A DNA stretch of 64,000 bases from an uncultured Chloroflexia bacterium. Its GTDB lineage: Bacteria > Chloroflexota > Anaerolineae > CG2-30-64-16. A program made the translations under genes and the position numbers. Positions 1,560-27,912 of the stretch are shown in pieces. Location of the stretch: contig CAWEMM010000011.1 of the NCBI GenBank assembly GCA_963810095.1, positions 288,001-352,000 on the forward strand, written 5' to 3'. The notes beneath the pieces were generated by a model, which saw only the letters and a list, made by a program, of their open reading frames with translations, had not been told where the DNA came from and ran no database searches. Position 1 is the first letter of the stretch. Each line of letters begins with the position of its first letter.

Positions 1560-2256
1560 ATGCAGCCAGCCCTCGCCCTCATCGAATTCGACTCTATCGC
1601 GGCAGGCGTACAGGCCGGCGACGCTATGGCCAAGAAGGCCCCGGTCGCGCGCGTCGCCGCGGGCACCGTCCACAACGGCAAGTACCTGGTGCTGGTGGCG
1701 GGCGAGGTCGCCGACGTCGAGGAGTCGTACGCCGAAGGGCTGGCACGTGGGCGCTAGCAGCATCCTCGACAGCGTTTTCCTTCCTGGCGTGCACCCCCAG
1801 GTCGCCTCTGCAGTCGGACGACAGCGCCTCCCCGAGCCTGTGGACAGCCTGGGCATCGTCGAGACACGCACGGTCGCGGCGGCTATCGCTGCAGCCGACG
1901 CCGGGCTCAAAGGTGCCGAAGTCAACCTGATCGAGGTGCGCCTCGCGGATGGGCTGGGCGGCAAAGGGCTCGTCTTTTTCTCCGGCCTGGTGCACGATGT
2001 CGAAGCCGCGGTCCACATCGGCGTCGAGTGCATTTCGTCAACCTCGGCGCTGATCCAGGCGGTCGTCATCCCCCAACTTCACCCCGACATGGCGGCGAAC
2101 ATCCTGGCCGACACCCGCTGGCAGCGCCAACATCTAGGCTCGCCGCGCCGTTGTTATGTCCTGTTGGGGGCGGGCTCGCCCCCAACACCCCCGCTTCGGT
2201 GGCTGCGCCCCCGAAACCCCCAAAGGCTACGCTCCCAGCACTGCTTACGCCCCTAG
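1560..2256 (+). CDS. Tandem-domain BMC shell protein (BMC-T, PduT-like), frameshift near 1745
   Basis: ORF 1560..1757 (ALALIEFDSIAAGVQAGDAMAK...GKYLVLVAGEVADV) joins the 1468..2256 frame (SLGIVETRTVAAAIAAADAGLKGAEV...GLGGKG...DVEAAV), giving two BMC domains. The last ~30 codons run into a repeat element, so the true end is uncertain. Confidence 0.85.
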
Positions 2257-4690: not shown

Positions 4691-7600
4691 TGATCGAACA
4701 CTTGCACCAGGGTGGGCTGCTGCGGGCAAAGCTAAGCCCGCCACAGCCATACCGCCGCACGCTCGCGCGACCACGCGTGCTGGCGTGCCTGACACAGGCG
4801 CTGGAGCACCGTCTGACGGTGGTTCATGCCGGCGCAGGGTACGGCAAGACCACCGCGCTGGCTTCACTGTGGCGTGAGTTGGGCGGCGGGGCCACGAAAC
4901 CGGTCGCTCCAGACCTTGCAACGGCCGCCGGCGGCCCCCACGAGATTGAGCCGGCCTGGCTGACCCTGGACAGCACGGATCGCGAGCCGAGGCAGTTCCT
5001 CGCCTACCTCAGCGCCGCATGCAATGCTGAAGCCGAGTCCTTGGCGCTCGAATGGGAAGGCGGCGCCGGGGCCGACTGGCGCAGGCAGATCGACCGGCTG
5101 TTGAATGCGCTCACGGTGCCCGAACGCGATGCCCGGCTGCTGATCCTCGACGATTTTCACCTCCTGGCGGGCGAGCCAGACGTGCTCGCGATGATGGAAC
5201 GGCTGCTCGCCTACCTCCCCGCAAACCTGCACGTGATCCTTGCGACGCGGCAGCCGGTTCCATTCGAATCCATCGCCGCCTGGCGTGCTCGAGGCGAAGT
5301 GCTCGAGGTCGGGAGCCGGGACCTCGCGTTCACCAGGGACGAGGTGCAGGCGCTCTTCGAGGAGAGCTACGGCGCGGGACTAGACCCGGACGACGCCGCG
5401 ACGCTGACCGAGTTAACCGAAGGCTGGCCGATTGCGTTGCAACTGGCCTGGCAAAGCCTGCGGAGCGGGCTGGGCCCCGGGCAGGTCCGCCTGGAGCCGA
5501 GCCGCGACATTCGCCGGCTGATCGAGCAGGGCAGCGGCCCCTCACACGTCCTTTTCGAGTACCTTGCGCACGAATTGCTCGACCGCCAGCCGCCGAGCGT
5601 CGTCAACTTTCTGCTCGACACCTCGGTCCTGCGCGATCTGACCCCGGGCGCGTGCGCCGCCGTGCGTGAGGACGAGGCGGCGGGAGACCTGCTGATCCGC
5701 GTCCACGAGCTGGACCTGTTCACGGTGTCCCTCGGCGACGGTCACTACCGCTATCACCACCTTTTCCACGACTTCCTCCGCGCGGGCAGCGGCCGACCCT
5801 TCGGGCGTCTGTGTGCGTCACGCCCGCGCCGCCGGTCACTTCGCCAGCGTGGGGCAGGCCGAAGAGGCAGTCTATCACTGGCTGCAAGCGGACGAGTTCC
5901 GGTCGGCGGCCGGGGCGATCGAATCTGCGGCCCCGGCCCTGCTGACGGCCGGCCGGCTTGATGTGGTCGCCGGATGGATCGACGCACTCCCGCCGTCTCT
6001 TCTGGCCGAGAGTCCGGCACTGCAGGCCCTGCTCGGAGACATCTGCCGGCTGCAGAGCCGGTTCGACCAGGCCCTTGGCTGGTACGCGGAGGCCGAGCGC
6101 ATCTATCAGAGCCGCGGCGATCGAGCCGGGATGAGCCGGGCCCTGCACGGGCAGGCGTCCGTCTACCTCGACACGGTCCGCCCCGCCCAAGCCGAGGGGC
6201 TGCTGCAGGAAGCGCTCCGGCTGAGCGAAGGCATTGCCGATCGCGAATCTCAGGCCCGCTTGCTCGACCTGCTGGCCGAGAACAAGCTGAATGTGGGCAA
6301 GCCGGGCGAAGCCGAGGCCCTGCGGGCAGAAGCTCAGAACCTGCGCGAGGAGGGGCCGACCGCAGATGCCTTGAGCGTGCGCGTGAAGCTGCGGACGGGC
6401 CAACTGGCGCAGGCGCGCGCGATGCTGGAGGCGCGCGTCGACGCCGAACGCCGCGCCGCGGAGGGCGGACAAATGGGACCGCCGCGCGCCCACCGGGAGA
6501 CGCGTCCTGATCTTGTCGCTGATCGCTGCGTTACAGGGAAGCGCCGAAACTGCGCTGACGCTTGCGCAGGAAGGCATCCAGCTTGGCGAGCGCCTGAACT
6601 CGCCCTTTGTGACCGCCGTGGGCCAGATGCGGCTCGGGCATGCGCTGCAGATCCAGGCCCACCAGGCCGCTGCCCGAGGCTGGGAAGGCGTCCTACCCGG
6701 TGGAACCGGCCCAAGCCCCGCAGCCAGCCGCGACGAAGCCATCCGGGGATACCGGGCCGCGATCGCGCTGGGCGATGCATTGGACGTGCGCCGGACACGC
6801 GCGGAGGCCATGTGGGGACTCACCCGAGCGTTCGGTTACTTCGGCGGCGCGGGCGAAGGCGGCGGCGACATTAAGGCCGCAGAGGACGCGGCGCGCGAAG
6901 GGCTGGAAATCGCACATTGGGCCGGCGACTTGTGGGTGGGCGCTCTGACCGAAATGACCCTTGGCGCCAGCTATGTCCTGGTAGACCAGCCCCACGAGGG
7001 CCTGCTCGCGCTGAGCCGGGCCACAGCCGCGTTCCGCGACTGCGGCGACACCTTCGGCCGCGCCGCCGCGCGACTTTGGGAGGCCCTGGCCCACGCCGCG
7101 CTCAAGCATCAGGAAGCCGCGCTGGGCGCGCTGCACGAAGCGCTGGGCCTGTGTGCCGTCAACGGGTACGACTATCTGTTGACCGCCCCGACCCTGCTCG
7201 GGCCGCCGGATGCCCGTCGCCTCGTGCCGCTCCTGCTAAAGGCTCGCACGCATCGCCTGCACACGGCATACGTGGGGCGCCTGCTGGCGCTGCTGGATAT
7301 CCCTGCCGTTCAGGCGCATGCCGGTTACCGTCTCCACGTCCAAACGCTTGGGGCGTTCCGGGTCTGGCGCGGCGCGGCCGAGGTGGCGCCGCGCGATTGG
7401 CAGCGCGACAAGGCGCGGCAGTTGTTCCAACTGTTCGTCACGGAGCGCGGACGGTGGCTGAATCGGGACGAAGTGGTCGAGCGCCTGTGGCCGAGCCTCG
7501 GGCCGGAAGCGGCCGTGCGCGACTTCAAGGTGGCGCTCAACGCGCTGAACCGGGCCGTCGAGCCGGGCCATGCGCCCGACGAACCGTTCGCGTTCGTCGC

Positions 7601-8108
7601 ACGCGAAGGCGCGGCATACCGCCTGCGCCCCGACGCAGATTTGTGGCTCGACCTCGCGGATTTTGAGCGCCGCTGCGAGGCCGGCCTGCGCGGGCCGCTG
7701 GGCGGGCCGGAGGCAGAGGCCACGCTGGAGCACCTGCGAGCGGGACTGCGCCTCTACCAGGGCGACTACCTGCCGGACGCGCTCTACGAAGATTGGGCGA
7801 CCGAGACGCGCGAGCGAATGCTCACGCTCTACCTGCGGGCGGCCGACCGGCTGGCCACCGCCCTGCTCGAACGCGGCCAGCACGAAGAAGCCCTGGACGT
7901 CTGCGGCGCAATCCTGGCGCGCGATGCTTGCTGGGAGCGCGCGTACCGCATCGAAATGCAGGCGTGCGCGCTGCTGGGCAATCGACCGCAGGCGCTGAAA
8001 TCTTATCAGCGCTGCCGCACCGTCCTCGCGGCCCAACTCGACGTCCCTCCTTCCCCAGAAACGGTCTCCCTCGCCGCCGCGCTCGGTCTGCACGGAGGCC
8101 GGCTGTAA
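4690..8108 (+). CDS. MalT-like STAND ATPase / TPR / wHTH-BTAD (SARP-type) transcriptional activator, frameshifts near 5800 and 6505
   Basis: LRAKLSPP, Walker A AGAGYGKT, LILDDFH, TEGWP and YRYHHLF in the first fragment; TPR-like middle; C-terminal VQTLGAFRV...LWP...LYQGDYLPD...WERAY BTAD domain. ATG overlaps the thiolase stop. Confidence 0.85.
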
Positions 8109-8173: not shown

Positions 8174-8428
8174 ATGCCCGACGACTCTCTGCCAACACCT
8201 GCCGAACCCAACCTCGACTCTTTCGTCTTGCGCTTCGTGTCCAACCGTGAAGGCCCTTCAGTTCGAGCAGGCGCCGAAAGCGGGTCCGACGACGGCTGCG
8301 GCGCAGTTGGATGGCACGGCGTCATCCGCCACGTGCAGACGAATCGTGAGCGGGCTTTCAGCCGTTGGACAGATGCCGTCGCATTTATCTCCGAATTCGT
8401 GCACGTGGGAGAGAACAAGGATGAGTGA
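8174..8428 (+). CDS. Small hypothetical protein (SFVLRF...WHGVIRHVQT...F type)
   Basis: GAGGA RBS, overlap with the next start codon, and a compact globular-looking sequence. Confidence 0.7.
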   Translation: MPDDSLPTPAEPNLDSFVLRFVSNREGPSVRAGAESGSDDGCGAVGWHGVIRHVQTNRERAFSRWTDAVAFISEFVHVGENKDE

Positions 8429-9467
8429 GTCCAGCGCCGGGATCGTCAGCGTAGGCATGTATGTGCCGGAGCCCGTGATGACGGCGGCCGACATCGCCGC
8501 GGCCAGTGGGATCGAAGAGTGGGTGGTGCGCGAGAAGTTCGGCATCACGCAGAAGCACGTGCCCGGCCCCGACGACCACACCAATGCGATGGCCGTGCGG
8601 GCCGCGCTCGACTGCCTCGCACACGCGGACATAAAGCCCGAGGACATCGACGTCGTCCTGTGCACGACGGAAGAGTGGAAAGAGTACCTGCTTTGGACCG
8701 CCGGCATCAAGCTGGCGTACGAAATCGGCGCAACGCGGGCGTGGGCCATCGACGTACAGATGCGCTGTGGGACGACCATCGCCGCCATGAAGATGGCGAA
8801 GGACATGATGCTGGCCGACGAGGAGATCCGGACTGTGCTCATCGCCGGAGGCTACCGCAACGGGGACCTCATCAATTACCGAAACCACCGCACGTCGTTC
8901 ATGTTCAACCTTGCAGCCGGCGCCGGCGCGATGCTGCTGCAGCGAGGGTATCCCCGCAACCGGGTCTTGGGCAGCCACCTGATGACCGACGGCTACATGA
9001 GCGAGCACGTTGTCGTGCCCGCCAGCGGTACCAAGCGCTTTCCCACCGATGCGGCCGTGGCAGAGGGCCTGTTTTACCTGGACCTCGTCGAGCCGGAAGC
9101 CATGAAGAGCCGGCTGAACGCGGTTTCGATGGACAACTGGATGCACTGCGTGGACGAGGCGCTGCGCAAGTCTGGGTCCAAGCCCGACGGCGCGGGCGGA
9201 ACCCGCTCCTACACCCGGGCCGACATCGGCTACCTCAACGTCCTGCACATGAAGCCATCGGCGCACAAGGACATGCTCCAGCGACTGGGGCTGACCGAAG
9301 AACAGTCCGTCTACCTTTCAGACTACGGCCACATCGGGCAGCAGGATGCCATGGTTTCGATCGTCGAGGGTCTGCGGCAGGGCCGGCTCAAGGACGGCGA
9401 CCTGATGGTCATCGTCGCAGCCGGCATTGGCTACACCTGGGGCGCGGGGTGCGTGCAGTGGGGGTAG
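8421..9467 (+). CDS. KAS III (FabH)-like condensing enzyme 1, Cys-His-His active site
   Basis: GIVSVGMYVPE, DVQMRCGTT, VLHMK, YGHIGQQD, AAGIGYTWG. Confidence 0.85.
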   Translation: MSESSAGIVSVGMYVPEPVMTAADIAAASGIEEWVVREKFGITQKHVPGPDDHTNAMAVRAALDCLAHADIKPEDIDVVLCTTEEWKEYLLWTAGIKLAYEIGATRAWAIDVQMRCGTTIAAMKMAKDMMLADEEIRTVLIAGGYRNGDLINYRNHRTSFMFNLAAGAGAMLLQRGYPRNRVLGSHLMTDGYMSEHVVVPASGTKRFPTDAAVAEGLFYLDLVEPEAMKSRLNAVSMDNWMHCVDEALRKSGSKPDGAGGTRSYTRADIGYLNVLHMKPSAHKDMLQRLGLTEEQSVYLSDYGHIGQQDAMVSIVEGLRQGRLKDGDLMVIVAAGIGYTWGAGCVQWG

Positions 9468-9563
9468 AATAGCCCGGAGATCCAGCTGATTGAACTGATC
9501 TCGGCGATCTATTTTGGAAAGGATCATGGGGATCAGTCTGGTCAGTCAAATCAGCGTCCCATT
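9468..9563. repeat. Palindromic intergenic repeat family A, copy 1
   Basis: aatagcccggagatccagctgattgaactgat...atcagtctggtcagtcaaatcagcgtcccatt; similar to the copies at 11407, 36102 and 51781. Confidence 0.75.
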
Positions 9564-9575
9564 AAGGAGTGTCTT

Positions 9576-10379
9576 ATGCCGACGATTTGCGTGAACGACA
9601 TCGACCTCTACTATGAGCTTTACGGCGACGGCGAGCCGCTCGTGCTCATCTCGGGGCTCGGGTATGGGCTTTGGCAGTGGCACAAGATGATCCCCTTCCT
9701 GGCCGGGCGGCGGCAGGTCATCGCCTTCGATAACCGCGGCGCAGGGCAAACGGCGAAGCCCGCTGGCCCCTACACCGCACCCATGCTCGCCGAGGACACG
9801 GCCCGCCTGATCGAGGAAGTGGTCGGTGGGCCGGCGGCAGTCATGGGCCACTCGATGGGCGGCTTCATCGCCCAGCAGCTTGCGCTGGCCCGGCCCGACC
9901 TGGTCAGCAAGCTCATCCTGGCCTCGACCAACTTCGGCGGCCCCAATGCCGCGCCGGTAACGCCCGAGGCCCTGGCCGCCATGCTGGATCGTTCGGGCGA
10001 CCCGGCCGACGTCGTGCGCCGGGGGGTCGGCATCGCCACCGCGCCCGGTTTTATCGACGCGCATCCTGACGTTCTCGCCGAGCTGATGAACTACCGGTTC
10101 ACGAACCCCGTGCCGCCCGAGGCCTACCAGGCCCAGATGGCGATCGGACTCGGACTGCTTTCGCCCGCGGCCGCTTTCGAGGGGAAGCTCGGCGCGGTCC
10201 GGGTTCCCACGCTCATCCTGTTCGGCGCGCACGACAACGTCGTGCCGCCCGCCAATGCCCGTCTGCTTGCCGCTCAGCTGCCGCAAAGCAAAATCGTGAT
10301 CCTGCCCGGCGCAGGCCACATGTTCCCGATTGAAGCGCCGGAAGAGGCTGCGCAGTCCGTATTGGAGTTCCTGGGATGA
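9576..10379 (+). CDS. Alpha/beta hydrolase
   Basis: LVLISGLG, FDNRGAG, nucleophile GHSMGG, GAHDNVVP, GAGHM. Confidence 0.9.
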   Translation: MPTICVNDIDLYYELYGDGEPLVLISGLGYGLWQWHKMIPFLAGRRQVIAFDNRGAGQTAKPAGPYTAPMLAEDTARLIEEVVGGPAAVMGHSMGGFIAQQLALARPDLVSKLILASTNFGGPNAAPVTPEALAAMLDRSGDPADVVRRGVGIATAPGFIDAHPDVLAELMNYRFTNPVPPEAYQAQMAIGLGLLSPAAAFEGKLGAVRVPTLILFGAHDNVVPPANARLLAAQLPQSKIVILPGAGHMFPIEAPEEAAQSVLEFLG

Positions 10380-11432
10380 CGGGCAACGAAGCCGCACGCC
10401 ACCAACCAGCACGCTATGCCCAGATCCTCGCGACCGGCCGCTACGTGCCCGAACGGGTGATGACCAACGCGGAGTTTGAGCCGCTGGTGGGTAAGCCCGT
10501 CGACCAGTGGCTCGTCGAGAAGGTCGGCATCCGCGAGCGACATGTCATGGCGGACGACCAGGCAACGTCGGATCTCATCGTGCCCGCCTGCCGGCAAGCA
10601 TTGGAACGCGCGGGGCTCGAGCCGGCGGACGTGGACCTGATCGTCGTCGCGACCGACACGCCCGACTACATCAGCCCGGCCACAGCTTCGGTGGTGCAGG
10701 CGAAGCTCGGGGCGGACCAGGCGGGGACCTACGACGTCAATTGCGCATGTGCGGCGTGGGTGACAGGGCTGGACGCGGCTGCGCGCATGATCGCGACGGA
10801 CCCGGACGTGAACCGGGTGTTGGTTGCGGGTGCGTACGGCATGACCAAGTTCCTGGATTGGCACGACATCTACACGGCAACCCTGTTTGCCGACGGCGCG
10901 GGCGCGGTGGTGCTTGGGGCCGGCGCCGAGCCGGGTTTCGTCGCCGGCAAACTCGTCGGCGCAGGCGACTATCACGACGCGCTCGGCATCTACTCCGGGC
11001 GGCACCTACCGCCCCGTCACCGACGCCAGCATGGCCGAACACGGACGGCCGCGGGTGCAGTTCGTCAAGAAGTTCCCGGCGACGTTCAACAGCGAGAACT
11101 GGCCGCAGTTGGTCAATGACGTCTGCCGCAAGGCCGGGTGGACGGTGGACGAGGTCGATTTCTTCCTGTTCACCCAGCTGAACCTGAGGACGATCGAGGA
11201 CGTGATGCAGCGGCTCGGCCAGCCCATGAGCAAGACCCACTGGATCATGGACAAGTGGGGGTACACCGGCTCCGCCTGCATCCCGATGGCCCTGGACGAC
11301 GCGGTGGAGCAGGGCAAGCTAAGCCCGGGCATGAAGGTGGTTTTCTGCGCCACGGGCGGCGGCATGGCCATGGCCTGTGATGCGTGGGTGTGGACGAGCG
11401 AGCTGGCATGGCACCCTGATCCAACTGATTGA
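10376..11432 (+). CDS. KAS III (FabH)-like protein 2 with degenerate His/Asn sites, frameshift near 10998
   Basis: TGRYVPERVMTN, GIRERH, DVNCACAAW, LFADGAGAVV, then FTQLN and WGYTGSACIPMAL in the second frame. Confidence 0.85.
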
Positions 11433-11501: not shown

Positions 11502-11521
11502 TCCTCCCCGGAGGGCGTGAT

Positions 11522-13066
11522 ATGTACATCGGGGACTATCTCGGGCGGCGAGAGATTTACAGCCCGGAAAAGATCGCCATTATCGACGCGGGCAAGCCCG
11601 GCGAGCCGCAGTATACCTATCGCCAGATGAACGAGCGCGCGAATCGCCTCGCGAATTACCTGCGCGACGAGGTCGGCGTCGGCAAGGGTGACCGGGTGGG
11701 CATCTTTGCCCGCGATGGCATCGAGCACCTGGACCTCTTCTTCGCCCTGTCGAAACTCGGTGCGATTCACGTCGCGTTCAACTGGCGCCTCCACCCCCAG
11801 GAGCTATGCCGCCTCGCCGAGCTGACGACGCCCAAGGCCCTCGTCTTCTCCGACGACTTCCGCCCCACGATCGCGCAGCTCCAAGCCAACCCTGCCTCGG
11901 GCACGATCACGCGCTACCTGCACATTGACGGGGAGGGCATCCCCGGGAGCAGCTTATTTGCAGAGGCGCGCGACGCTTCGTCCGGCAGTCCCGTCACTTG
12001 CGAAACCCTTGAGGCCGAGAATATCGCCGCGCTGCTCTTCACCGGGGGCACAACCGGGCTGCCGAAGGGCGCGGAGATCAGCCACCGCCAGATCGCCTGG
12101 AACACGCTCAACACAGTGATTCACGACGTGACGCACAACGACGTGTACCTAAACGTCTTCCCCATGTTTCATACCGGCGGCTTGTTTGTGTACACGCTGC
12201 CGCAGGTCATCTTCGGCGGCACGACCATCCTCACCCGCCAGTTTGATCCGGGGCAGGTGCTCGACTTGATCGGGCGGTACAGGGTGACCGTGTTTGGCGG
12301 CGTGCCGACGATGTACCAGATGATGACGCAGGCGCCCAACTGGGAAACGGCCGATTTATCCAGCCTCCGGTTTTGCACTTCGGGAGGCGCACCACTGCCG
12401 GTGCCGTTGGTTCAGAAGTACACTGCCGAGAAAAGCATTCGCTTCAAGCAGGGCTTCGGGATGACCGAGTTTGGACCGGGCATTTTCGCACTGGCGCCGG
12501 AGGATGCTTTGCGAAAGGCCGGTTCGATCGGCCGGCCGAACTTCTACGTAGATGCTCGCATCGTGGACGAAGACAACCGTGCCTTGCCTCCCTTGCAGGT
12601 CGGCGAGCTGGTGCTAAAGGGACCGAGTTACTGCTCAGGCTATTGGGCGAACCCGGACGCCACTGCGGGAGCGGTAGACACGGAGGGCTGGTTCCACACG
12701 GGTGACGCGGCCTATTGCGACGAGGAGTGGTACTTCTTCATCGTCGACCGAATCAAGGACATGTTCATCTCGGGCGGTGAGAATGTGTACCCGGCCGAGA
12801 TCGAAGCGGTGCTTTACCGGCACCCGGCCGTCCACATGTGCGCGGTCGTCGGCGTGCCCGACCCTAAGTGGGGGGAAGTCGGCGTCGCGTGCGTTATCGG
12901 GAAGCCGGGGGCAACTGCCAGCGCAGAGGACCTGCTGAGCTTCCTGTCCGAGAACCTCGCCCGGTACAAGGTGCCCAGGCGGGTAGAGTTTGTCCAGGCG
13001 CTGCCTATTTCGGCGGCCGGCAAGATCCTCAAGCGTGAACTGAGAGAACAGCTGCTGCATTCGTAG
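11522..13066 (+). CDS. Acyl-CoA ligase (AMP-binding) 1
   Basis: FTGGTTGLPKG, GFGMTE, WFHTGD, DRIKDMFISGGENVYPAEIE, GKILK. Confidence 0.92.
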   Translation: MYIGDYLGRREIYSPEKIAIIDAGKPGEPQYTYRQMNERANRLANYLRDEVGVGKGDRVGIFARDGIEHLDLFFALSKLGAIHVAFNWRLHPQELCRLAELTTPKALVFSDDFRPTIAQLQANPASGTITRYLHIDGEGIPGSSLFAEARDASSGSPVTCETLEAENIAALLFTGGTTGLPKGAEISHRQIAWNTLNTVIHDVTHNDVYLNVFPMFHTGGLFVYTLPQVIFGGTTILTRQFDPGQVLDLIGRYRVTVFGGVPTMYQMMTQAPNWETADLSSLRFCTSGGAPLPVPLVQKYTAEKSIRFKQGFGMTEFGPGIFALAPEDALRKAGSIGRPNFYVDARIVDEDNRALPPLQVGELVLKGPSYCSGYWANPDATAGAVDTEGWFHTGDAAYCDEEWYFFIVDRIKDMFISGGENVYPAEIEAVLYRHPAVHMCAVVGVPDPKWGEVGVACVIGKPGATASAEDLLSFLSENLARYKVPRRVEFVQALPISAAGKILKRELREQLLHS

Positions 13067-13097: not shown

Positions 13098-14162
13098 ATG
13101 AATGATGACATCCCAACCTTGCTCGGCATCACATCCACCTTCGTCGACACGCCGCGGCTGCGCACGCACGTCCTCTCGTGTGGCCCGACGAGCGGCGTTC
13201 CGATCGTCTTCATCCACGGCAACTTCTCCGCCGCGACTTACTGGGAAGAGCTGATGCTGGCCCTGGCCGAGCGCGGCTTCCGCTGCGTCGCGCCCGACCT
13301 GCGCGGCTACGGCTGGAGCGAAGATAAGCTGATCGACGCAACGCGCGGTTATCGCGACTGGAGCGACGACCTGCACGCACTCGTGACCGCGCTGGCCCTG
13401 CCCCCCTTCCATCTTGTTGGTTGGTCTGCGGGAGGCGGGGTTGTGTATCGCTACCTGGCGGATCACCCCGCCAACCTGCTCAGCGTCACGCTCCAGGCCC
13501 CGGTCAGCCCGTACGGCTTTGGCGGCTCGAAGGGGCTCGATGGAACGCCCTGCTACGCCGACTTCGCCGGCTCGGGTGGGGGCGTGGTCAACCCGGTCTT
13601 CGTCCAGCGCATCCAGATGGGCGACCGCACGGCCGACGACCCGAATTCGCCCCGCAACGTAATCGCCGCGTTCTATTACGCGCCGGGTTTCGTCTCCGAG
13701 CGGATGGAGGACTACCTGACCGCCGCGCTCCAGGAAAAGACAGGGCCCGAGCGCTACCCGGGCGACTTCGTACCGTCGCCCAACTGGCCCAACGTGGCGC
13801 CCGGTGTGCTGGGGCCGGTCAACTGCTGGTCGCCCAAATACCTGGCCGAAGATGCACCCGACGTCCTGGCCGCGGAGCCCAAGCCGCCGGTCCTGTGGAT
13901 CCACGGCGACAAGGACCTGATCGTGGGCGACATGTCGATGTTCGATTTCGGCGCGCTGGGCAAGTTGGGCTACGTTCCCGGCTGGCCCGGCGACGAAGTG
14001 TACCCGCCACAGCCGATGGTCGGCCAGACGCGCGCTTTCCTCGAGCGTTATGCGGCGGCGGGCGGACACTTTCAGGAAGTCGTGATCGAGAACACCGGTC
14101 ACTCGCCCCACATCGAGAACCCGCAGGAATGGCTGAATGCGTTCCTGGAGATGGTGGGATAG
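13098..14162 (+). CDS. Alpha/beta hydrolase with GWSAG lipase box (PhaZ-like esterase/depolymerase candidate)
   Basis: VFIHGNFS, APDLRGYG, VGWSAGG, HGDKDLIV, GHSPHIE. Confidence 0.85.
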   Translation: MNDDIPTLLGITSTFVDTPRLRTHVLSCGPTSGVPIVFIHGNFSAATYWEELMLALAERGFRCVAPDLRGYGWSEDKLIDATRGYRDWSDDLHALVTALALPPFHLVGWSAGGGVVYRYLADHPANLLSVTLQAPVSPYGFGGSKGLDGTPCYADFAGSGGGVVNPVFVQRIQMGDRTADDPNSPRNVIAAFYYAPGFVSERMEDYLTAALQEKTGPERYPGDFVPSPNWPNVAPGVLGPVNCWSPKYLAEDAPDVLAAEPKPPVLWIHGDKDLIVGDMSMFDFGALGKLGYVPGWPGDEVYPPQPMVGQTRAFLERYAAAGGHFQEVVIENTGHSPHIENPQEWLNAFLEMVG

Positions 14163-14215: not shown

Positions 14216-15274
14216 ATGCAGCGAGAACCGAAGATGACGTTGAGCCAGATAGAAGCAATGCGTTCTGGGGCCCGCACCGCCGTTCGCACGTGCATGGGCG
14301 TGGGTCCGGCCGACCGGGTGTTTGTGCTGACCGATCGTGTCACGAACACGATCGGCCGGTTGTTGAGCGAAGAAGCGGACGAGGCCGGTGCGCAGGCAGT
14401 CATATACGACCTGGAGCACTTTGGCCCGCGGCCCATGACCGAGTTTCCCGACAACCTGCGCCGCGAACTATTGAACTACCGGCCGACGGTCACGTTCTAC
14501 GCTGCGGCAAGCCAGCCGGGCGAACTGCCGTTCCGCATGGCGCTCCGGGTGTTCCTCGTGCAGGACCTGAAGGTGCGGCACGGACACATGCCCGGGGTGA
14601 CGCCCCAGCTGATGGTGGAAGGTATGCGCGCGGACTATAAGGTTGTCGCCGCGCTGACCCGCGCCGTGTATGACCTGGGCCGGGAGACACGCACCATCCA
14701 CGTCACGACGCCGGATGGCACCGACCTGACCGCGCTGATCAGCCCCCGCCTGCGATGGGTGCCGTCGACCGGCATCTACCACGAACAGGGCCAGTGGGGC
14801 AACCTGCCCGAGGGCGAGACGTTCACCTGCCCTGAAACGCTCGACGGACGGCTCGTCGCCCATATCCTCGGAGATTACTTTAGCGAGAAGTACGGCGTCC
14901 TGGAGCACCCGGTGATCTTCCACCTGGCAGACGGCCGCGTCACGGCGATCGAGAGCCAGAATCGCGACGTCGCCATCGAGGTCACTGAGTACCTGGACTC
15001 TTCTGAGAACGGCCGCCGGGCTGGCGAATTTGCCATTGGCACCAACGTCGGGCTGAAGAAGCTCATTGGCAACCTGCTGCAAGACGAGAAGCTGCCTGGC
15101 ATTCACGTCGCGTTCGGCAATCCCTACCCCCACGAGACGGGGGCTGACTGGACGTCCAACGTCCACGTCGACGTGATCCCGATCAACTGCACCATCACGA
15201 TGGACGGCCAGACGGTGATGCAGGATGGCCGTTTCGACTACGAACTGCTGGGGGTCTCACCCAGCGGACGCTGA
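14216..15274 (+). CDS. Aminopeptidase T-like (M29) metallopeptidase
   Basis: GNLPEGETF, GEFAIGTN, LQDEK...HVAFGN and HVDV in the C-terminal part of ORF 13421..15274. Confidence 0.8.
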   Translation: MQREPKMTLSQIEAMRSGARTAVRTCMGVGPADRVFVLTDRVTNTIGRLLSEEADEAGAQAVIYDLEHFGPRPMTEFPDNLRRELLNYRPTVTFYAAASQPGELPFRMALRVFLVQDLKVRHGHMPGVTPQLMVEGMRADYKVVAALTRAVYDLGRETRTIHVTTPDGTDLTALISPRLRWVPSTGIYHEQGQWGNLPEGETFTCPETLDGRLVAHILGDYFSEKYGVLEHPVIFHLADGRVTAIESQNRDVAIEVTEYLDSSENGRRAGEFAIGTNVGLKKLIGNLLQDEKLPGIHVAFGNPYPHETGADWTSNVHVDVIPINCTITMDGQTVMQDGRFDYELLGVSPSGR

Positions 15275-15305: not shown

Positions 15306-16857
15306 ATGTTCATCGGCGACTGGCTCGGCCGGCGAGCCAACCTGACACCGGACAAGGTCGCACTCATCGACGCTACGGGCGCCGCCGAGCGCAGCATCAC
15401 GTATGCAGAGTGGCACCGCCAGGCCTTGCGCACGCAGCACTTCCTGGTTGACGAGCTGGGCGTGACCAAGGGCGACCGGGTGGCAGTGCTTGCCGCAAAC
15501 AGCGTCGAGTATCTGGATGTATGGTTTGCCCTGGGCAAGCAGGGGGCCATCCTCCAGAATCTCAACTGGCGGCTGGCCGTGCCCGAGCTCGAGCGCGTCT
15601 TGCTGGATGCGGAGCCGGTCGGCACTGATCTACTCGTCTGAGTTCGGCGGACAGGTGGACGAGCTGCGGGGCCGAGTGCCCTCGATTCGTCACTGGATTG
15701 CGTTCGACCGGCCCAACCGCGATGACATGCTCTTCGGCCGCCGCGAGCTGCACCCCGACACGCCGCTCCCAGACGTAGAGCTCGCCTGGGACGATCCGTG
15801 GGTGCTGTGCTACACGGGCGGCACGACCGGATTACCCAAGGGCGCCGTGCTCACCCACGGCAGCATGGCCGCCAATTCGATCAACACCGTCATGAGCTGG
15901 GGCGTGACCCCAGACGACGTCGTACCGCTGATTAGCCCGCTCTTCCATACGGGTGGACTCAACGTCTTCACCCTGCCCCTCGTCCACATCGGCGGTACGA
16001 CGGTCGTCACCCGGGGGTGGAACACGGACCAGATGTACGACCTGGTCGCGCGCCGCGCAATCACGCTTTTCTTCGCCGTGCCGACCATGTTCGTCATGCT
16101 CCAATCGGACCCGCGCTGGGAGAGCACGGACTTCACCTACCTGAAATACGTCATCAACGGCGGTGCACCCTGCCCACTGCCCATCTTCGAGAAGTGGTGG
16201 GCGAAGGGCGTGCCGTTCAAGACGGGGTACGGCTTGACGGAGGCGGGGCCGAATACGTTCTGGCTCCCCGAAGCGGACGTGAAGCGAAAGCCCGGTTCGG
16301 TCGGCCACCCGCTGTTCCACGTCGACGTGCAGGTTGTCGACCCCGACTCCGAGCGGCCGTGCAGCCCGGGGGAGGTCGGCGAGCTGCTGATCAGGGGCCC
16401 GCACGTCTGCCGCGGCTACTGGCGCAACCCCGAGGCGACCGCGGCGGCGTTCCGCCCCGCGAAGGGCGACCCCGATGGGCCAACATGGCTGCACACGGGC
16501 GACCTGGCGCGCTGCGACGAGGAGGGTTTCTACTACATTGTCGGGCGCTGCAAAGATATGATTATCTCGGGCGGTGAGAACATCTACCCTGCCGAGGTGG
16601 AGAGCGCCATGCACGCGCACCCGGCGGTCGCGTCAGCTGCCCTCATCGGCGTGCCCGACGAGAAGTGGGGGGAGGTCGGCAAGGCGTTCGTCGAGCTCAG
16701 GCCGGGCGCAAAGCTCGAGGAGGCCGAGCTGCTCGACTTCCTGCGCGGCCGGCTCGCGCGCTACAAGGTGCCAAAGTCGGTCGTCTTTGTTGCCGCGATG
16801 CCCGTGACGGCCGCCGGCAAAATCGATAAGCAGGAACTGGCCCGCTCGTTCGCCTGA
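15306..16857 (+). CDS. Acyl-CoA ligase 2, frameshift near 15620
   Basis: MFIGDWLGRRA N-terminus joins YTGGTTGLPKG, GYGLTE, WLHTGD, GGENIYPAEVE, GKIDK. Confidence 0.9.
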
Positions 16858-20730: not shown

Positions 20731-22157
20731 ATGCATTCCAATGTCAGTCGAAAATGGCTTGTCGTCAGCCTGGTGGTCGTGCTGAGCATGCTGCTGGCGG
20801 CCTGCGGCGGCGCCGCGCCCGCCACCGCGCCCACCCAGGCGCCTGCGCCCACGACCGCGCCTGTTGCGGAACCGACCAAGGCTCCTGAGCCGACCACGGC
20901 CCCTGAGCCCACCAAGGCGCCAGAGCCCACTGCGGCGCCCACCGAGGCCACCGCGCCCACTCGGCCGCCGAGCCCACCAAAGAGACTGCGGCTGCCACGG
21001 GCAAGGAACTCGTCATCGGCGAGTTGACAGACGATTCGGGGCTCCTGGCGCCCTACGGCCCGCTCTTCGAGCGCGGCTTCGAAATCGGCCTTGACTATGC
21101 GACGGACGGCAGCCGGGTGATCGCCGGGCGGCCGGTCAAGGTTGTGCTCAAGGACACCGTCAGCAAGCCGGACGTCGGCGCAACCTTGGCACGCGAGGCG
21201 CTGGAGAAGGACGGCGCCGAGATCCTCCTGGGCGTACCCAGCTCGCCGACGGCGCTTGCTGTGGGCGGCATCGCCACCGAAAACAAGAAGATCTACATCG
21301 CCGGTCCCGCGGCTGCCGATGCCATCACGGGCGCCAACTTCAGCCCGTATGTCTTCCGCTGTGGCCGCCAGAACATCCAGGACGCGCTGACCATGGGCGG
21401 CGGCCTCCTCGGCCTGGGCAAGAAGTTCGTCCAGATCTCGCAGGACAATGCGTTCGGGCAAGGCTCGGCCGCGGGCTTCTACAAGATCGTGAAGGCTGGA
21501 GGCGGGGCCTTCCCCCTCAATGACACTGAGAAAGGCGTTGGCGCAGTCTTCGCCCCGCCCGACACGACCGACTTCACCCCCTACATCAACCAGATCCTGG
21601 ACTCGGGGGCCGAGGTGCTCATCGTGACGTGGTCTGGCAACGGCTTCGTGCCAATGTTCCAGCAGATGCAGCAGCTGGGCGTCTTCGATTCCATGAAGGT
21701 CGCCACCGGCTTCGGCGACAACCAGGCGCTGAAGGCGGGCTACGAGGCGGCGAAGGATTCGTACGGCGTCAGCGTCTACCACTACTCGTTGTTCGACAAC
21801 CCGGTCAACAAGTACCTGACCGACGAGCACATCAAGCGCTTCAACGTCCCGCCGGACCTCTGGGCCGAAGCGGGCTTCAACTGCGCGGTGATGGTGAAGC
21901 AGGCTCTGGAAGCCACGAACGGCGACACGGACGGCGACAAGATGATCAAGGCCCTCGAGGGCATGAAGTTCCAGGGCCCGAAGGGTGACTACGAGGTGCG
22001 GGCGACCGACCATGCGCTGCTGCAGCCCATGACTTATGTCAAGCTGACGAACACCACCGACCCGGACTTCAAGTTCTTCGACCTGGTTACGCTCTTCAAG
22101 CCGGAACAGACTGCGCCGCCGTGTGCGGTGCCGGCCGATCAGAACCGCTGCAAGTAG
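20731..22157 (+). CDS. LIV-family ABC substrate-binding lipoprotein, frameshift near 20960
   Basis: Lipobox LAAC, a PTKAPEPT repeat linker, then a type I periplasmic-binding domain (SGLLAPYG, DNAFG, DFTPYI, GPKG). Confidence 0.88.
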
Positions 22158-22183
22158 CAGCCCATCCCGAGCCGGGAAGCTCG

Positions 22184-22256
22184 CCACGAAGACTCGAAGA
22201 CACGAAGGCGCACTGAAGCAATCTTCGGGCAACTTGGTGTCTTTGAGTCTTAGTGG
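22184..22256. repeat. Palindromic repeat family B (8-nt periodic CACGAAGA arms), copy 1
   Basis: ccacgaagactcgaagacacgaagg...cttggtgtctttgagtcttagtgg. Confidence 0.7.
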
Positions 22257-22287
22257 TGAACACCGGCTTTCGCCAGGGAGACCATCT

Positions 22288-23046
22288 ATGCCCGACACGA
22301 TCATCGAGACCCGCCAGGTCGCAAAACACTTTGGCGGCCTGCACGCGGTCGACGGAGTGGACCTGAAGGTGACTGAGGGCGCCATGCACTCGATCATCGG
22401 TCCCAACGGTGCAGGCAAGACCACGCTCTTCAACCTGATCAGCGGCTATCTCAAGCCGACGTCGGGCCAAGTATTCCTCCGCGGCCGCGAAGTCACCGGC
22501 CTCCCCCTGCATCGCATGGCGCATCTCGGGCTCGGACGCTCGTTCCAGATCACGAACGTTTTCCCCACCCTCACCGTGCTCGAAAACGTCCGTCTCTCGG
22601 CACAGGCGCTCGGGCACGACAACTTCAAGCTCTGGCAGGGCGCCGGCAAATTCCACGGCTATGAGGACAAAGCACGGGCCGCGCTGCACGACGTGGGGCT
22701 GGAAGAGAAAGCCGGCGTGCCCGCCTTGGTGCTGCCCCACGGCGACAAGCGCAAGCTGGAGCTTGCCATCATCCTCGCCGGCGACCCACAGGTGCTGCTG
22801 CTGGACGAGCCCACGGCCGGCATGGCGTCCGAGCAGGTGCCGGCACTCGTCGAAATGATCGCCCGCATCCGAGCCGCGGGGAACAAGACAATCATCCTGG
22901 TCGAGCATAACATGGGCATTGTCATGAACATCTCGGACCGCATCACCGTGATGCACCAGGGCCAGGTGCTGGCGGAAGGCAGCCCGCGCGAGATTGCGGC
23001 CAACGAGGCCGTCCAGAAGGCGTACCTGGGGGAAACGCATGACTGA
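22288..23046 (+). CDS. ABC ATP-binding protein, LivG-like
   Basis: GPNGAGKTT, LLLDEPTAG, LVEHNM. Confidence 0.92.
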   Translation: MPDTIIETRQVAKHFGGLHAVDGVDLKVTEGAMHSIIGPNGAGKTTLFNLISGYLKPTSGQVFLRGREVTGLPLHRMAHLGLGRSFQITNVFPTLTVLENVRLSAQALGHDNFKLWQGAGKFHGYEDKARAALHDVGLEEKAGVPALVLPHGDKRKLELAIILAGDPQVLLLDEPTAGMASEQVPALVEMIARIRAAGNKTIILVEHNMGIVMNISDRITVMHQGQVLAEGSPREIAANEAVQKAYLGETHD

Positions 23047-23825
23047 CATCCTTGAGGTCAACGCCATCCATACCTTCATCAACCAGTTCCACATCCTGGA
23101 AGGGGTCTCGCTCACGGTGCCTCAGGGCAGCATCACGGCGCTGCTCGGCCGCAACGGAGCGGGCAAGACCACGACGTTGCGCTCCATCATGGGACTCAAT
23201 CCCCCCCGGGAAGGCACGATCGTCTACGCCGGCGTGCCGATTCACGGCCAGACAGCCTACCAGATCGCCGCCCGCGGCATCGGCTACGTGCCCGAATACC
23301 GGGCCATCTTCCGTTCGCTGACCGTCGAGGAAAACCTCAAGATCGCGGAGCGTTCCAAGAACGACCTCGCGAAGCGCGGCGACCTCATCTTCGAGCTCTT
23401 CCCGGATTTGAAACGGTTCTACCGCTTGCCCGGCGGGCAGCTCTCGGGCGGCCAACAGCAGATGCTCGCCATTGCCCGTGCGTTGGTGCCGGAAAACCGG
23501 CTCCTGTTAGTCGACGAACCGAGTGAGGGGCTGGCCCCGATCCTCATCGACGCGATCGTGGTTGCACTGCGCCGGCTCTCGGCGCACGTGACGATCCTCC
23601 TCGTCGAGCAGAACTTCCGCATGGCGTCACAGCTCGCCGACCGCTACTACATTGTCGACGATGGCCAGACGGTCAACTCAGGGCGGATGGCCGACCTGAT
23701 CAACGACCGGCGCGCTCATCACGCGGTATCTTGGGGCAGGCTACGCCGGGGCGGCAAGTCACGCGGCCCCGCCGAACGAAACAGCCGCAGCCGCGGAAAC
23801 AGGTGTGGAGGGAGTGAACCAATGA
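23039..23825 (+). CDS. ABC ATP-binding protein, LivF-like, frameshift near 23710
   Basis: GRNGAGKTT, LSGGQQQM, DEPSEGLAP, LVEQN. The shifted frame ends LITRYLG...TGA, overlapping the next ATG. Confidence 0.88.
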
Positions 23826-25334
23826 CCGCCTTCTTTCGCCGCAACCGGCCACTCCTGGTCACGCTCTTGATCGTGCTGCTGGTGCTGGTCTGGATGGTGA
23901 ATCGCTTTCCGGCGCGGGTCAGCGCCAGCATCCTACTGTCGGGGCTGACGCTGGGTGCGCTCTATTTTCTTGTGGCGGCCGGCCTGTCGCTGATCTTCGG
24001 CCTCATGGACGTGCTCAATTTTGCGCACGGTGTCATCTTCATGATCGGGGCCTATTTTGGATTCACGGCCTACGCGAACCCCCGGCTCCTCCTCAACACG
24101 CTGCCCTTCGTGCTCGCCCTTCTGGGCGGTGCGCAGATCGGCCGGTGGATCGGCGGCATGCTGCCGCCGCGCTTCGGCAAGCGCTGGCTCGACACGGCCG
24201 CTCTCGTCATCATGTTCCTGCTCTCCGGCGCACTCCTGGTGTTTGCGCTGCGCGGCTTCAACATCACCGTGCTCACCGCGGCTGCGTCGACCGTCGCAGG
24301 CGGCGCGGTCGCCACGGACGTCGCCCAGGAGGTCGCGGCCGTCTTCCTGCCGCGCATCGTGCTCCTCACGGTGTCGGGCTTCTTCCTCGGCCTCGCCCTG
24401 AGCCGGACGAGCCCGGTCGAGGTGCGCCAGAAAACCCGTTGGCCGGCCGCCGCCATCGGCGCAGTCCTGGTCGCTGCGGCTTTCGCCATCACGCCGGTCC
24501 GCAGCCCCGCGGAAGCCTTTCTGCTGGCGACATCGTCCAACGCCCGCTTCGTCCTCGCGCTTCTCGTGGGGCTGCTGGTGGGCGGCGGACTCGGTGCTCT
24601 CGTCGAAACGTCCGTGATCCGGCCGCTATACGCCCGGCCCGTCTACCAGGTGCTCCTGACACTCGGCCTCAGCTATGTGGGCACTGAATTGGTCAGGAGC
24701 GTTTGGGGCACGGCCGGCTTCTTCATGACCACCCCCGCGCTTATTCGCCGGGTCGGGTGAAGGCTGTCCATCTCCCAACCTGTGGTCTTGGTTCAGCGAC
24801 CACTGCCAATCCATCCTCGTGCTGGGCAGGCCTTTCCCGTCCTACCGGCTCTTCATCATCGCGCTCGGCGTGGCGATGTTCGTAGTCATTTGGTTGATCC
24901 TGAAGAAGACGCGGCTCGGTATTATCATCCGGGCCGGCGTGCAAGACAGCGAGATGGTGCAAGCACTCGGCATCAACGTCCGCCGGGTCTTCACCATCGT
25001 CTTTGCGATTGGGTGCGCGCTGGCCGCCGTGGGCGGCGTGGCGGCCGCCCCGTTTCTGGGCGTCAACCTTGGACTCGGCGCGGAACTCCAGCTGCAGGGG
25101 TTTATTGCGGTCGTGATTGGCGGCATGGGGAACTTCGTCGGCGCGGCAGTGGGCGCGCTGCTGGTCGGCATGGCACGCGCATTTGGCGACCAGTTGGTCC
25201 TCTCCGGCATCCAGCTGCCCTGGATGAACGAGGCGCTGCGCATGTCGCCGGCGATCGCCCGTGCTTCGACCGTGCTCATCATGGCGCTCGTGCTGCTGCT
25301 CCGGCCCGCGGGGCTGTTCGGGAAGAAGGAGTAA
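23822..25334 (+). CDS. ABC permease, LivH-like with a large membrane insertion, frameshift(s) near 24740-24800
   Basis: GLSLIFGLMDVLNFAHG, TRLGIIIRA, VVIGGMG, RPAGLFG. Confidence 0.85.
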
Positions 25335-25338
25335 CGAC

Positions 25339-26403
25339 GTGGACCAGACGAGCTCACGCACGCGCGCCGTGCGCGGCGCCGGCAGATGGGGCGGCCTCCT
25401 GGTGCTGCTTCTGCTGGCCGCGTTGCCGTTCCTCCTCGCGCTGTTCACCGGGCAGCCGGTCAATGCCGGGACGCCCAAGTTCTGGCAGGGCTTGATCATC
25501 CAGGTATTTATCGCGGCAGTCTATGCCATGAGCTATGACCTGCTGTTCGGTTACACCGGCATCCTCAGCTTCGGCCACGCCATGTTCTTCGGCACCGGCG
25601 CGTATGTGGCCGGCATCCTGCTCAAGGAAGCCGGCTGGTCACTCGGACCGGCGGTGCTTGCGGTGATTGGCGTCGCAGTGCTCCAAAGCCTCCTGGTCGG
25701 CGTGGTGTCGCTCCGGGTCCGGGGGGTGTACTTTGCCATGGCCACCCTGGCCTTCTCGCAGATGTTCTACATCCTCGTCCAAGCCACCGACTTGCGCGAC
25801 ATTACCGGCGCAGAAGACGGCCTGCACGGCATCCCCGTGCCCGCCTGGTTAAGCCCGACCGACCATCGCCTGACGTTCTACTTCGTCGCGCTGGCGTTCT
25901 GCGTGGTGTGTTACCTGATGGCCCGGCGCCTGGTCGATTCGCCGCCCGGTCGCGTCATGGTGGCGATCCGCGAGAACGAACCGCGAGCCCAGATGATTGG
26001 TTACAACACCTTCGCTTACAAGCTCCTCGCACTCACGGTTGCTGGCGTCCTGGCGGCGCTGGCCGGCATGATGAATGCGCTGTGGAACGGGAATGCAACG
26101 CCCGAGGTCCTCAGCGTCGAGACGACGATCAACGCGCTGCTAATGACCATCATCGGCGGGGTGGGCACGCTGATCGGGCCCATGCTGGGCGCGGCCGTCT
26201 TCCAGCTGCTGGGCTACTGGCTGAACAGCGTGTTCGGCTCGCAGTGGCAGCTCATCTTCGGCGCGGTCTACGTTCTGCTGGTCGTCTTCCTGCCCTATGG
26301 TATCGTCGGGACGTACTATGCCCGGCGCAACGATATCCGAGCCGGCTGGCAGCGCCTGCTCCGTCCGTTGCACCCGCCCGCAAAGCCATCCGAGCACCTG
26401 TAG
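25339..26403 (+). CDS. ABC permease, LivM-like
   Basis: GYTGILSFGHAMFFG, RGVYFAMATLA, AIRENE, IIGGVG. Confidence 0.92.
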   Translation: MDQTSSRTRAVRGAGRWGGLLVLLLLAALPFLLALFTGQPVNAGTPKFWQGLIIQVFIAAVYAMSYDLLFGYTGILSFGHAMFFGTGAYVAGILLKEAGWSLGPAVLAVIGVAVLQSLLVGVVSLRVRGVYFAMATLAFSQMFYILVQATDLRDITGAEDGLHGIPVPAWLSPTDHRLTFYFVALAFCVVCYLMARRLVDSPPGRVMVAIRENEPRAQMIGYNTFAYKLLALTVAGVLAALAGMMNALWNGNATPEVLSVETTINALLMTIIGGVGTLIGPMLGAAVFQLLGYWLNSVFGSQWQLIFGAVYVLLVVFLPYGIVGTYYARRNDIRAGWQRLLRPLHPPAKPSEHL

Positions 26404-26518
26404 TGAGCCGGATGTTGTTTCCGGGGCTCCACCGCCACCGTCCGTGAAGTAGCCACGGCGATCGACGACGCAGGAGTGAGGTCCGCCGGTTCAGCGGCGC
26501 CACGTGCGCCCTGCCTTT

Positions 26519-26547
26519 TTGACGGACCCCTTGGGAAGGATTATACT
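26519..26547 (+). promoter_or_regulatory. Sigma70-type promoter of the MFS gene
   Basis: TTGACG-N17-TATACT. Confidence 0.7.
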
Positions 26548-26595
26548 TTCGTTCGGCGGCCGACTGGCCGCCGAATCTTTTGTAGTTCACGTGTC

Positions 26596-27912
26596 ATGCC
26601 AGAAAGCCAATCCATCCCGCGCCCCGCGCCACCTGCTGCGTCGCGGCTGAACACCCGCCTGGACGAGTTTCTCGCCGGGCCGTACGATCCTGAGACCGAC
26701 GCTCGCCCCGGCAGCCGCCGCGGCCGGCGCCTGTTCTGGGCCGACGGCTTCACCTCGAACGTCTCCGAGTCGGTCGTCACAAACTTCACGAACCCGTTTG
26801 CGCTGGCGCTGGGCGCCACGAACCAGCAAATGGGCATCATGAGCAGCATCGCCAACCTTGCCGCTGCGCTGGCGCTCCTACCCGGCGCCCGCCTCGACGA
26901 GCGCGTGCCCAGCCGCAAGCGCATCGTGGTAACGACGAGCTTCCTGCACCGCCTGCTGCTCATCGCGATCGCGCTCCTGCCGCTCCTGTTCGGGCCGCGG
27001 GCCATCTACGTCTTCATCTTCCTGGTGGCCGTGCGGTCGTTTTTCGCCCAGCTCGGCTTCCCTGCGTGGTCCGCCTTCAGCGCGGACCTGGTGCCCGCAC
27101 GAATCCGGGGCCGCTATTTCGGCGCGCGGAACATCGGGCTCGCCGTGGCGGCGCTCGTCTTTGCGCCGCTTTTCGGCCGGCTCGCCGACGTTATCGGCCT
27201 GCCGAAGGGCTACCAGGTCCTTTTCGTGATCGCCGCACTGGTGGGCTTTGGCGCGGTCCTGGTCTTCAGAAGCATCCCGGAGCCGCCGCGGTCGCGCTCG
27301 GCAGAGCAGGCCCCTGCGCAAGGGAAACAGCCTGTGCTGGCCCTGCTGCGAACGCACCCCCGCTTCGCCGCGTTCAGCGCGGTGGCCGTGCTGTGGAACC
27401 TGTCAATCATGGTCGCGGGGCCCTACTTCAGCGTCTACATCGTGCGCAACCTGGCAGCAAGCCCGACGATCATCGGTCTGCTCGCAGCTTCCAACGCTAT
27501 CTTCAACATCATCGGGCAGCGGGTCTGGGGCCGCACCAACGACCGCCGCGGTGCGGCATGGGTGATGGCCGCAACCGGCCTGATGATCCCGCTGATCCCG
27601 GCGTTCTATGCGGTGGCGCCCAACGCGTGGTATCTGATCGCCGTCGAAGCGTTCTCGGGCTTTATGTGGTCGGGCTATGGCCTTTCAAGCTTCAACATGA
27701 TGCTGGGGCTGGCGCCCGCCGAACAGCGCGCGCGCTTCTCGGCCGTATACCAGAGCGGCGTCTTCCTGGCGTCCTTCCTCGGCCCGCTCATCGGCATGGC
27801 GCTCGTCAGCGTCTACGACATCCGGCTTCTCTTTTGGATCTCCGCCATCGGCCGCCTGATCGCCTCGCTCCTCTTCATGGTTGCGGTGCGTGTCGGACCG
27901 GATCGCGAATGA
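26596..27912 (+). CDS. MFS transporter
   Basis: About 12 hydrophobic segments; LVPARIRGRYFG and WGRTNDRRG loop motifs. Confidence 0.88.
   Translation: MPESQSIPRPAPPAASRLNTRLDEFLAGPYDPETDARPGSRRGRRLFWADGFTSNVSESVVTNFTNPFALALGATNQQMGIMSSIANLAAALALLPGARLDERVPSRKRIVVTTSFLHRLLLIAIALLPLLFGPRAIYVFIFLVAVRSFFAQLGFPAWSAFSADLVPARIRGRYFGARNIGLAVAALVFAPLFGRLADVIGLPKGYQVLFVIAALVGFGAVLVFRSIPEPPRSRSAEQAPAQGKQPVLALLRTHPRFAAFSAVAVLWNLSIMVAGPYFSVYIVRNLAASPTIIGLLAASNAIFNIIGQRVWGRTNDRRGAAWVMAATGLMIPLIPAFYAVAPNAWYLIAVEAFSGFMWSGYGLSSFNMMLGLAPAEQRARFSAVYQSGVFLASFLGPLIGMALVSVYDIRLLFWISAIGRLIASLLFMVAVRVGPDRE

Follow-up and report, generated by a model that had tools for sequence, protein, structure and literature searches.

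Two FabH-fold enzyme families with altered active sites as candidate interchangeable parts of an importer-linked operon

Do two neighboring genes for proteins related to β-ketoacyl-acyl carrier protein (ACP) synthase III (KAS III), both with altered catalytic residues, encode the halves of one enzyme or two enzymes of one pathway? The question is raised by a 64,000-nucleotide stretch of DNA from an uncultured Chloroflexia bacterium (GenBank assembly GCA_963810095.1, contig CAWEMM010000011.1, positions 288,001 to 352,000; hereafter the window), in which two genes, here called K1 and K2 (Table 1), carry Pfam KAS III domains. The initial annotation of the window had recognized both as KAS III paralogues and proposed that they work as a complex or relay, with the heterodimer PqsBC of Pseudomonas aeruginosa as precedent. 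The reading that we prefer, at a probability of roughly 0.55, is that K1 and K2 represent two separate conserved FabH-fold families, which serve as optional and interchangeable parts of a widespread, importer-linked catabolic operon.

Conserved residues of K1 and K2

We aligned with MAFFT 79 homologues of K1, 11 orthologues of K2 (64-88% identity), eight more distant K2-like proteins (36-46% identity, termed K2x) and the FabH encoded by the window's own genome, leaving out a partial K1 (L055) and a frame-broken K2x (L005). The nucleophilic Cys is invariant across the whole alignment, Cys116 of K1 being kept in 79 of 79 homologues. The His and Asn that accompany it in FabH (His244 and Asn274 in E. 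coli) are absent at the family level from both K1 and K2. According to the accessible part of one report, this pair is needed for malonyl decarboxylation (PMC4807248), and because it is lost neither protein can be an ordinary FabH. In fold, length, dimer-type architecture and position of the Cys both are nevertheless like FabH (1HN9 of E. coli, 8VD9 of B. subtilis), and FabH structures are the best Foldseek matches of both models, with template modeling (TM) scores of 0.8-0.9. The window's genome also encodes a separate canonical fabH.

K1 scores 458.4 bits against the NCBIfam family NF005308 (PRK06840; cut-off 315), matching positions 3-336 of its 339, and 116.6 bits against the FabH model TIGR00747, below the cut-off of 292.1. 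Its best 120 homologues are 71-89% identical to it, and record titles place the family at 60-89% identity in Chloroflexota, Acidimicrobiia, KSB1, Calditrichota, Ignavibacteria and Bacteroidota metagenome-assembled genomes. The AlphaFold model of K1 has a FabH fold (predicted local distance difference test score 87). Alignments to solved FabH structures put His304 (YGHIG) on the FabH Asn, a position at which all 79 homologues have His. Around it, none of the 80 K1 rows departs from the G, H, G and D of GHxGxxD, nor does A3; besides His304 and Asp309, the invariant residues of the family are C116, K278, S280, E84 and E85.

The initial annotation had described K1 as Cys-His-His, counting the His of LHMK (His276) as the second member. 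Its Cys and its His in place of Asn hold up throughout the family. Of the 79 homologues, 25 have His and 54 have Leu at the LHMK position, so that Cys-His-His is rejected as the K1 signature; the third residue is Asp309. MAFFT sets His276 one column beyond the FabH His (the FabH His column itself has Leu, Val, Ile or Thr in K1 homologues), and in the K1 model the strand spanning 269-274 and the helix that begins at 279 place His276 where the FabH His would sit. HMMER left this stretch unaligned to the FabH structures, and the register comes from MAFFT and the secondary structure of the model, which disagree by one residue. In the window's K1, His276 may thus occupy the place of the FabH His; the family as a whole can do without it.

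Conservation points instead to Cys116-His304-Asp309 as the K1 set, which is the motif of CerJ and ChlB3. Like K1, CerJ (3S3L), ChlB3 (7EQI) and DpsC (5WGC) combine a FabH fold and its Cys with a His where FabH has Asn, followed five residues later by an Asp; the accessible part of the ChlB3 report gives the triad as Cys113-His296-Asp301 (C116/H304/D309 in K1) and the active site as the same as that of CerJ, with the His-Asp pair activating the Cys for acyl transfer (PMC9573744). A profile of the K1 C-terminal part matches ChlB3 at 279-338, CerJ at 272-337 and DpsC at 297-342, and when counted back from the match ends the His and Asp of K1 fall on 296/301 of ChlB3 and 295/300 of CerJ. Searched with the K1 sequence itself, CerJ and DpsC match in the N-terminal part only (E-values of 5e-7 to 1e-6), compared with 6e-27 for FabH. 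These enzymes use ACPs in making antibiotics; K1 belongs to an importer-linked operon in which no ACP gene was seen. The label of NF005308, "3-oxoacyl-ACP synthase," implies a condensing enzyme, against which the conserved residues argue; a literature search, thin on subscription journals, found no paper on PRK06840 and, for FabH-like proteins in degradation clusters with CoA ligases, only an unrelated genome paper. A second K1-like paralogue (36% identity) lies in a KSB1 locus (L050:14764-15771) after a Lig3-like ligase, with a Cys and with a His followed by Asp five residues on (YGHIQTLD).

K2 carries another set of residues. Alignments to solved FabH structures put its Thr (FTQLN) on the FabH His (pHQaN) and its Tyr (WGYTG) on the FabH Asn (ygNts), confirming the initial description of a Cys with Thr for His and Tyr for Asn: all 19 K2-type sequences have the Tyr, and 18 have the Thr, with Ser in the remaining one. 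That description had missed two further invariant residues, a Cys five residues after the Tyr (GYxGSxC) and an Asp in TDT. K2 differs from the CerJ and ChlB3 motif in having Tyr and Cys at its two positions. When representatives of 50% identity clusters were ranked with a K2 profile, Thr-Tyr-Cys occurred in 21 of the best 150 and His-Asn-x in 107; the Asp was also present in 16 of the 20 Thr-Tyr-Cys rows listed, the other four being cut at the N terminus. Since Thr-Tyr-Cys and the Asp recur among the representatives, they form a fixed clade signature rather than the product of drift. The K2 set (Asp, Cys, Thr, Tyr, Cys) is fixed and undescribed, and we consider it the most novel item of the locus. 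The expectation that the substitutions would be conserved in homologues is thus borne out for the K2 set and for the Cys and His-for-Asn of K1, with the LHMK His as the part that fell.

An intact K2 orthologue fails TIGR00747 (215 bits, cut-off 292.1), lies just above the threshold of a looser FabH subfamily model, NF006829 (252.2 versus 249), and reaches only 155.6 bits against NF005308. One K2-like variant (L098, G077:C8, 8004-9002, minus strand), which adjoins a MaoC gene, has Asn at the FabH His position and Ser for the Cys five residues after the Tyr (VNQ ... GYTGSAS); representative P0132 shows the same pattern.

Operon setting and possible chemistry

Non-FabH chemistry on coenzyme A (CoA) esters, as first proposed, is likely for both proteins, because the FabH His/Asn pair is lost and both sit among acyl-CoA ligases. 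The operon itself looks catabolic because it contains importer, thiolase and hydratase genes. A Liv-type ABC importer occurs in the window and in loci L035, L074, L091 and L095, and a TonB-dependent receptor in L050 (KSB1) and L062 (Cytophagia), the latter also with an MFS transporter. An SCP-x-type thiolase is accompanied by a DUF35 protein in L035; such thiolases occur alone in L045 and L095. The operons also carry a MaoC hydratase and a CoA transferase.

We propose that the operon would be controlled by its BTAD/STAND regulator, and that its CoA ligases would activate an imported organic acid or ester, to be degraded as CoA thioesters. In the operons K1 usually lies beside a FabG-like reductase gene (the reductase follows K1 in 30 of 69 loci, a ligase in 16). 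K2 usually lies directly upstream of its own ligase gene (11 of 15 loci, stop and start often overlapping), with hydrolase genes nearby. Each enzyme would act alone, as a homodimer like FabH, loading its Cys with an acyl group drawn from either a CoA thioester or an oxo-ester, then handing it to CoA, water or an alcohol; no carbon-carbon bond would be made with malonyl units. This chemistry and the substrate are what we infer for K1 and K2. Polyhydroxyalkanoate (PHA) or a 3-hydroxybutyrate ester as substrate was set aside as a guess: the hydrolases Hyd1 and Hyd2 give partial PHA depolymerase matches of 83-91 bits, with cut-offs at 250-300. The reductase scores as FabG/acetoacetyl-CoA-reductase-like, which is weak as a pointer to a PHA ester.

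K1, K2 or both might instead be thiolases, performing retro-Claisen cleavage of a 3-oxoacyl-CoA made by the FabG-like reductase in place of an acyl transfer involving oxygen. The reductase that follows K1, and that precedes K2x in 9 of 17 loci, would suit such a role, as would the MaoC hydratase of the operon. We nevertheless regard it as unlikely: the operons already include ordinary thiolases, and a thiolase-like second Cys in K2 (FCATGGG) was dropped as a candidate, since its position varies between Cys, Val, Thr and Ile among the Thr-Tyr-Cys representatives. We know of no FabH-fold thiolase.

The OleABCD pathway comprises a thiolase-fold enzyme, a reductase, an adenylate-forming enzyme and an α/β-hydrolase, and its OleA has Cys-His-Asn plus a Glu base and works with OleB, OleC and OleD as partners. 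The same four protein superfamilies stand side by side here, which would fit a biosynthetic cluster of the Ole, β-lactone or pyrone kind, joining two acyl chains head to head and finishing the product with the reductase, adenylate-forming enzyme and hydrolase. Such a role is very unlikely, given the importers inside the operons and the thiolases, DUF35 protein and MaoC hydratase, which are typical of breakdown. The ligases, moreover, score best with FadD/MenE-type models and the reductase with FabG, and neither K1 nor K2 keeps the catalytic His and Asn.

Distribution of the two families and the frame change in K2

If K1 and K2 formed an obligate complex, their genes would be expected to travel together, and the initial annotation had offered strict co-occurrence as a check. 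We searched 400 other Chloroflexota genomes, one per species and some of them incomplete, so that an absence is to be read as "not found." NF005308 (K1) was detected in 28, of which 27 had no K2-type gene. The K2 profile scored at least 540 bits in four genomes (G019, G112, G250, G322), none with K1, and 315-355 bits in ten, of which only G025 had K1; co-occurrence thus fails in both directions, 13 of the 14 K2-type carriers being without K1. A further partial match, in G037, was also without K1. Loci holding K2 alone carry the rest of the operon: the 14 K2 or K2x loci lie beside the same kind of regulator, FabG-like reductase, ligases and hydrolases, the reductase being 70-80% identical to the one adjoining K1 elsewhere. 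The K2 and K2x proteins at the loci of these 14 genomes keep FTQ and GYxGSxC, the L098 protein being a further variant.

From the K1 side, 27 loci with at least 7 kb on both flanks divide into seven with a K2 orthologue, four with K2x and 16 with neither. Of the 80 K1 loci fetched, 20 have a K2-type gene in the same operon, as does the window, and in none of those 20 are the two genes adjacent. In the window the reductase is missing between K1 and Hyd1 (9467-9576); its orthologue (77% identity) stands alone on another contig of the genome (G000:C12:117925-118659), at least 10 kb from any ligase, hydrolase or KAS-like gene.

A PqsBC-like heterodimer or obligate relay, carrying out one non-FabH reaction on CoA esters, would account for the shared operon and strand and for the incomplete FabH triads of both proteins. 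FabH-fold enzymes are dimeric and, in the accessible part of the PqsBC report, the heterodimer is said to be able to mimic the FabH homodimer (PMC4807248). PqsBC also consists of FabH-like proteins with incomplete triads from one operon with a CoA ligase, as K1 and K2 do. The same part of that report describes PqsC as keeping Cys and His without the Asn, and PqsB as lacking all three and having a shortened C-terminal half (PMC4807248), whereas K1 and K2 are both full-length with the nucleophilic Cys, their genes are not adjacent and each is found alone. The analogy to an incomplete subunit therefore falls, and we give little credence to a heterodimer or relay: an obligate pair is unlikely because the two families are separate and either can occur without the other. 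In our view the two proteins fill alternative or parallel places in a single pathway family; a facultative K1-K2 heterodimer is conceivable in genomes holding both.

The window's K2 changes frame once, by one base onward, at tccgggcggc near 10990, where intact orthologues read GIY.GGT. Both halves are stop-free and 81-88% identical to the intact orthologue of locus L031. The regulator has two frameshifts (frames 4717-5793, 5783-6502 and 6507-8072; in tblastn the 1178-residue intact L031 regulator matches in three pieces, in frames 1, 2 and 3), Lig2 passes from frame 3 to frame 1 near 15621 by tblastn, and the genome's own canonical fabH is split as well (G000:C6:1667134-1668109). In the window at least four frame breaks lie inside 12 kb, and the genes they interrupt are conserved in other respects. 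Breaks of this density fit an unpolished long-read assembly (16 contigs, 88.5% completeness), and fragmented gene calls are to be expected throughout this genome. Because the regulator, Lig2 and fabH are broken likewise, the K2 frameshift is probably an assembly error and the gene intact in the organism. The best of the read runs contained at most 0.44 of the sampled words and yielded only short, low-depth contigs of relatives, of which one, at depth 2, has 76 letters in place of 77 window letters (10992-11070), too weak to use. That K2 is dead in this organism, with a real frameshift and K1 alone functional, is scarcely credible, for although the frame does change and the reads give no proof of an error, the surrounding breaks, the split fabH, the stop-free conserved halves and, weakly, the 76-letter contig all speak against it.

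Several points weigh against optional, separately acting families. The operon-sharing of K1 and K2-type genes, in a quarter of the K1 loci fetched and in the window, makes cooperation possible where both exist, and the independence of the two families is drawn from a sample in which absence is merely "not found." Reads at 10985-10996 are too thin to settle the K2 frameshift, with no clean bridge. For K1, the placement of its residues on ChlB3 and CerJ presupposes an ungapped stretch from the His to the match end, and the first 50 structures that Foldseek listed for K1 include none of CerJ, ChlB3 and DpsC. The models of K1 and K2 are closest in fold to true FabH enzymes, so that the Cys-His-Asp likeness of K1 is one of motif rather than of kinship; the motif could support a different reaction, for example retro-Claisen cleavage of the thiolase kind beside the reductase.

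Gene layout and implications

The plus strand of the window from about 2.6 to 28 kb is a single run of genes (Table 1). The stop of Hyd1 and the start of K2 share bases (ATGA). The peptidase M29 piece between Hyd2 and Lig2 is probably a gene remnant; L031, the locus closest to the window in synteny, lacks a gene at that position.

Table 1. Features of the operon and its surroundings, in window coordinates
Feature	Position	Strand	Evidence or remark
Aldehyde dehydrogenase	2-1501		Just upstream of operon
BMC (bacterial microcompartment shell) domain protein	1468-2256		After aldehyde dehydrogenase, just upstream of operon
Nitroreductase-family protein	2670-3449	+	Upstream of regulator; Pfam/NCBIfam profile matches
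Classical thiolase	3497-4690	+	Upstream of regulator; Pfam/NCBIfam profile matches
STAND/BTAD-type transcriptional regulator	4717..8108	+	Pfam AAA_22 and BTAD; three frames
K1, FabH-fold, 348 residues	8421-9467	+	Pfam ACP_syn_III and ACP_syn_III_C; NCBIfam NF005308 (PRK06840)
K1 Cys116, nucleophile (MRCG)	8766..8768	+	Aligned with FabH Cys
K1 His276 (LHMK)	9246..9248	+	Present in window; not kept family-wide
K1 His304...Asp309 (GHIGQQD)	9330..9347	+	FabH Asn position and five residues on
Hyd1, α/β-hydrolase	9576-10379	+	Pfam Abhydrolase_1, 119 bits; between K1 and K2
K2 N-terminal part, frame A	10376-~10989	+	Pfam ACP_syn_III; 81% identity to intact L031 K2
K2 Asp94	10655-10657	+	Frame A
K2 Cys125	10748-10750	+	Frame A
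K2 frameshift site tccgggcggcac	10985..10996	+	Frame advances one base
K2 C-terminal part, frame B	~10992-11432	+	Pfam ACP_syn_III_C; 88% identity to L031 K2
K2 Thr	11172-11174	+	Frame B; alignment to FabH structures
K2 Tyr	11262-11264	+	Frame B; alignment to FabH structures
K2 Cys, five after Tyr	11277-11279	+	Frame B
Lig1, acyl-CoA ligase	11519..13066	+	Pfam AMP-binding; NCBIfam FadD/MenE-type matches; usual gene 3' of K2
Hyd2, α/β-hydrolase with long insertion	13098..14162	+	78% identity to L031 Hyd2
Peptidase M29, partial match (positions 205-352 of 406)	14684-15136		Between Hyd2 and Lig2; probable gene remnant
Lig2, acyl-CoA ligase	15306..16857	+	Two Pfam AMP-binding pieces; frame break near 15621
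Second nitroreductase-family protein	Between Lig2 and Lig3	+	
Lig3, acyl-CoA ligase	18176-19696	+	
MaoC-type hydratase	19700-20101	+	
Liv-type ABC importer (binding protein, two ATPases, permeases) and MFS transporter	21024..27912	+	
Peripla_BP_6 binding protein of Liv-type importer	21024-22157		

Elsewhere in the window, two reading frames of coding-like base composition (45974-48325, minus strand, 784 residues; 48695-50569, plus strand, 625 residues) have no Pfam match at an E-value of 1e-5. In a protein of 2041 residues on the minus strand (56953-63075), residues 383-583 form a metallopeptidase domain of the reprolysin-like (M12B) kind, and the remainder has no Pfam match.

Annotation pipelines label both K1 and K2 "3-oxoacyl-ACP synthase III," although neither can work like FabH, and a heterodimer should no longer be the default reading for them. 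It is a doubtful but consequential proposal that the K2 type represents a new catalytic class of the thiolase superfamily and that, together with the K1 type, it performs CoA-dependent cleavage of oxo-esters, an ester thiolysis in which the bond energy is saved as acyl-CoA; if true, anaerobes could live on imported oligo-esters at the ATP cost of a single ligase step. The reactions of K1 and K2, once known, would give a function to an operon common in sediment and wastewater and could extend the thiolase superfamily by a new type of reaction.

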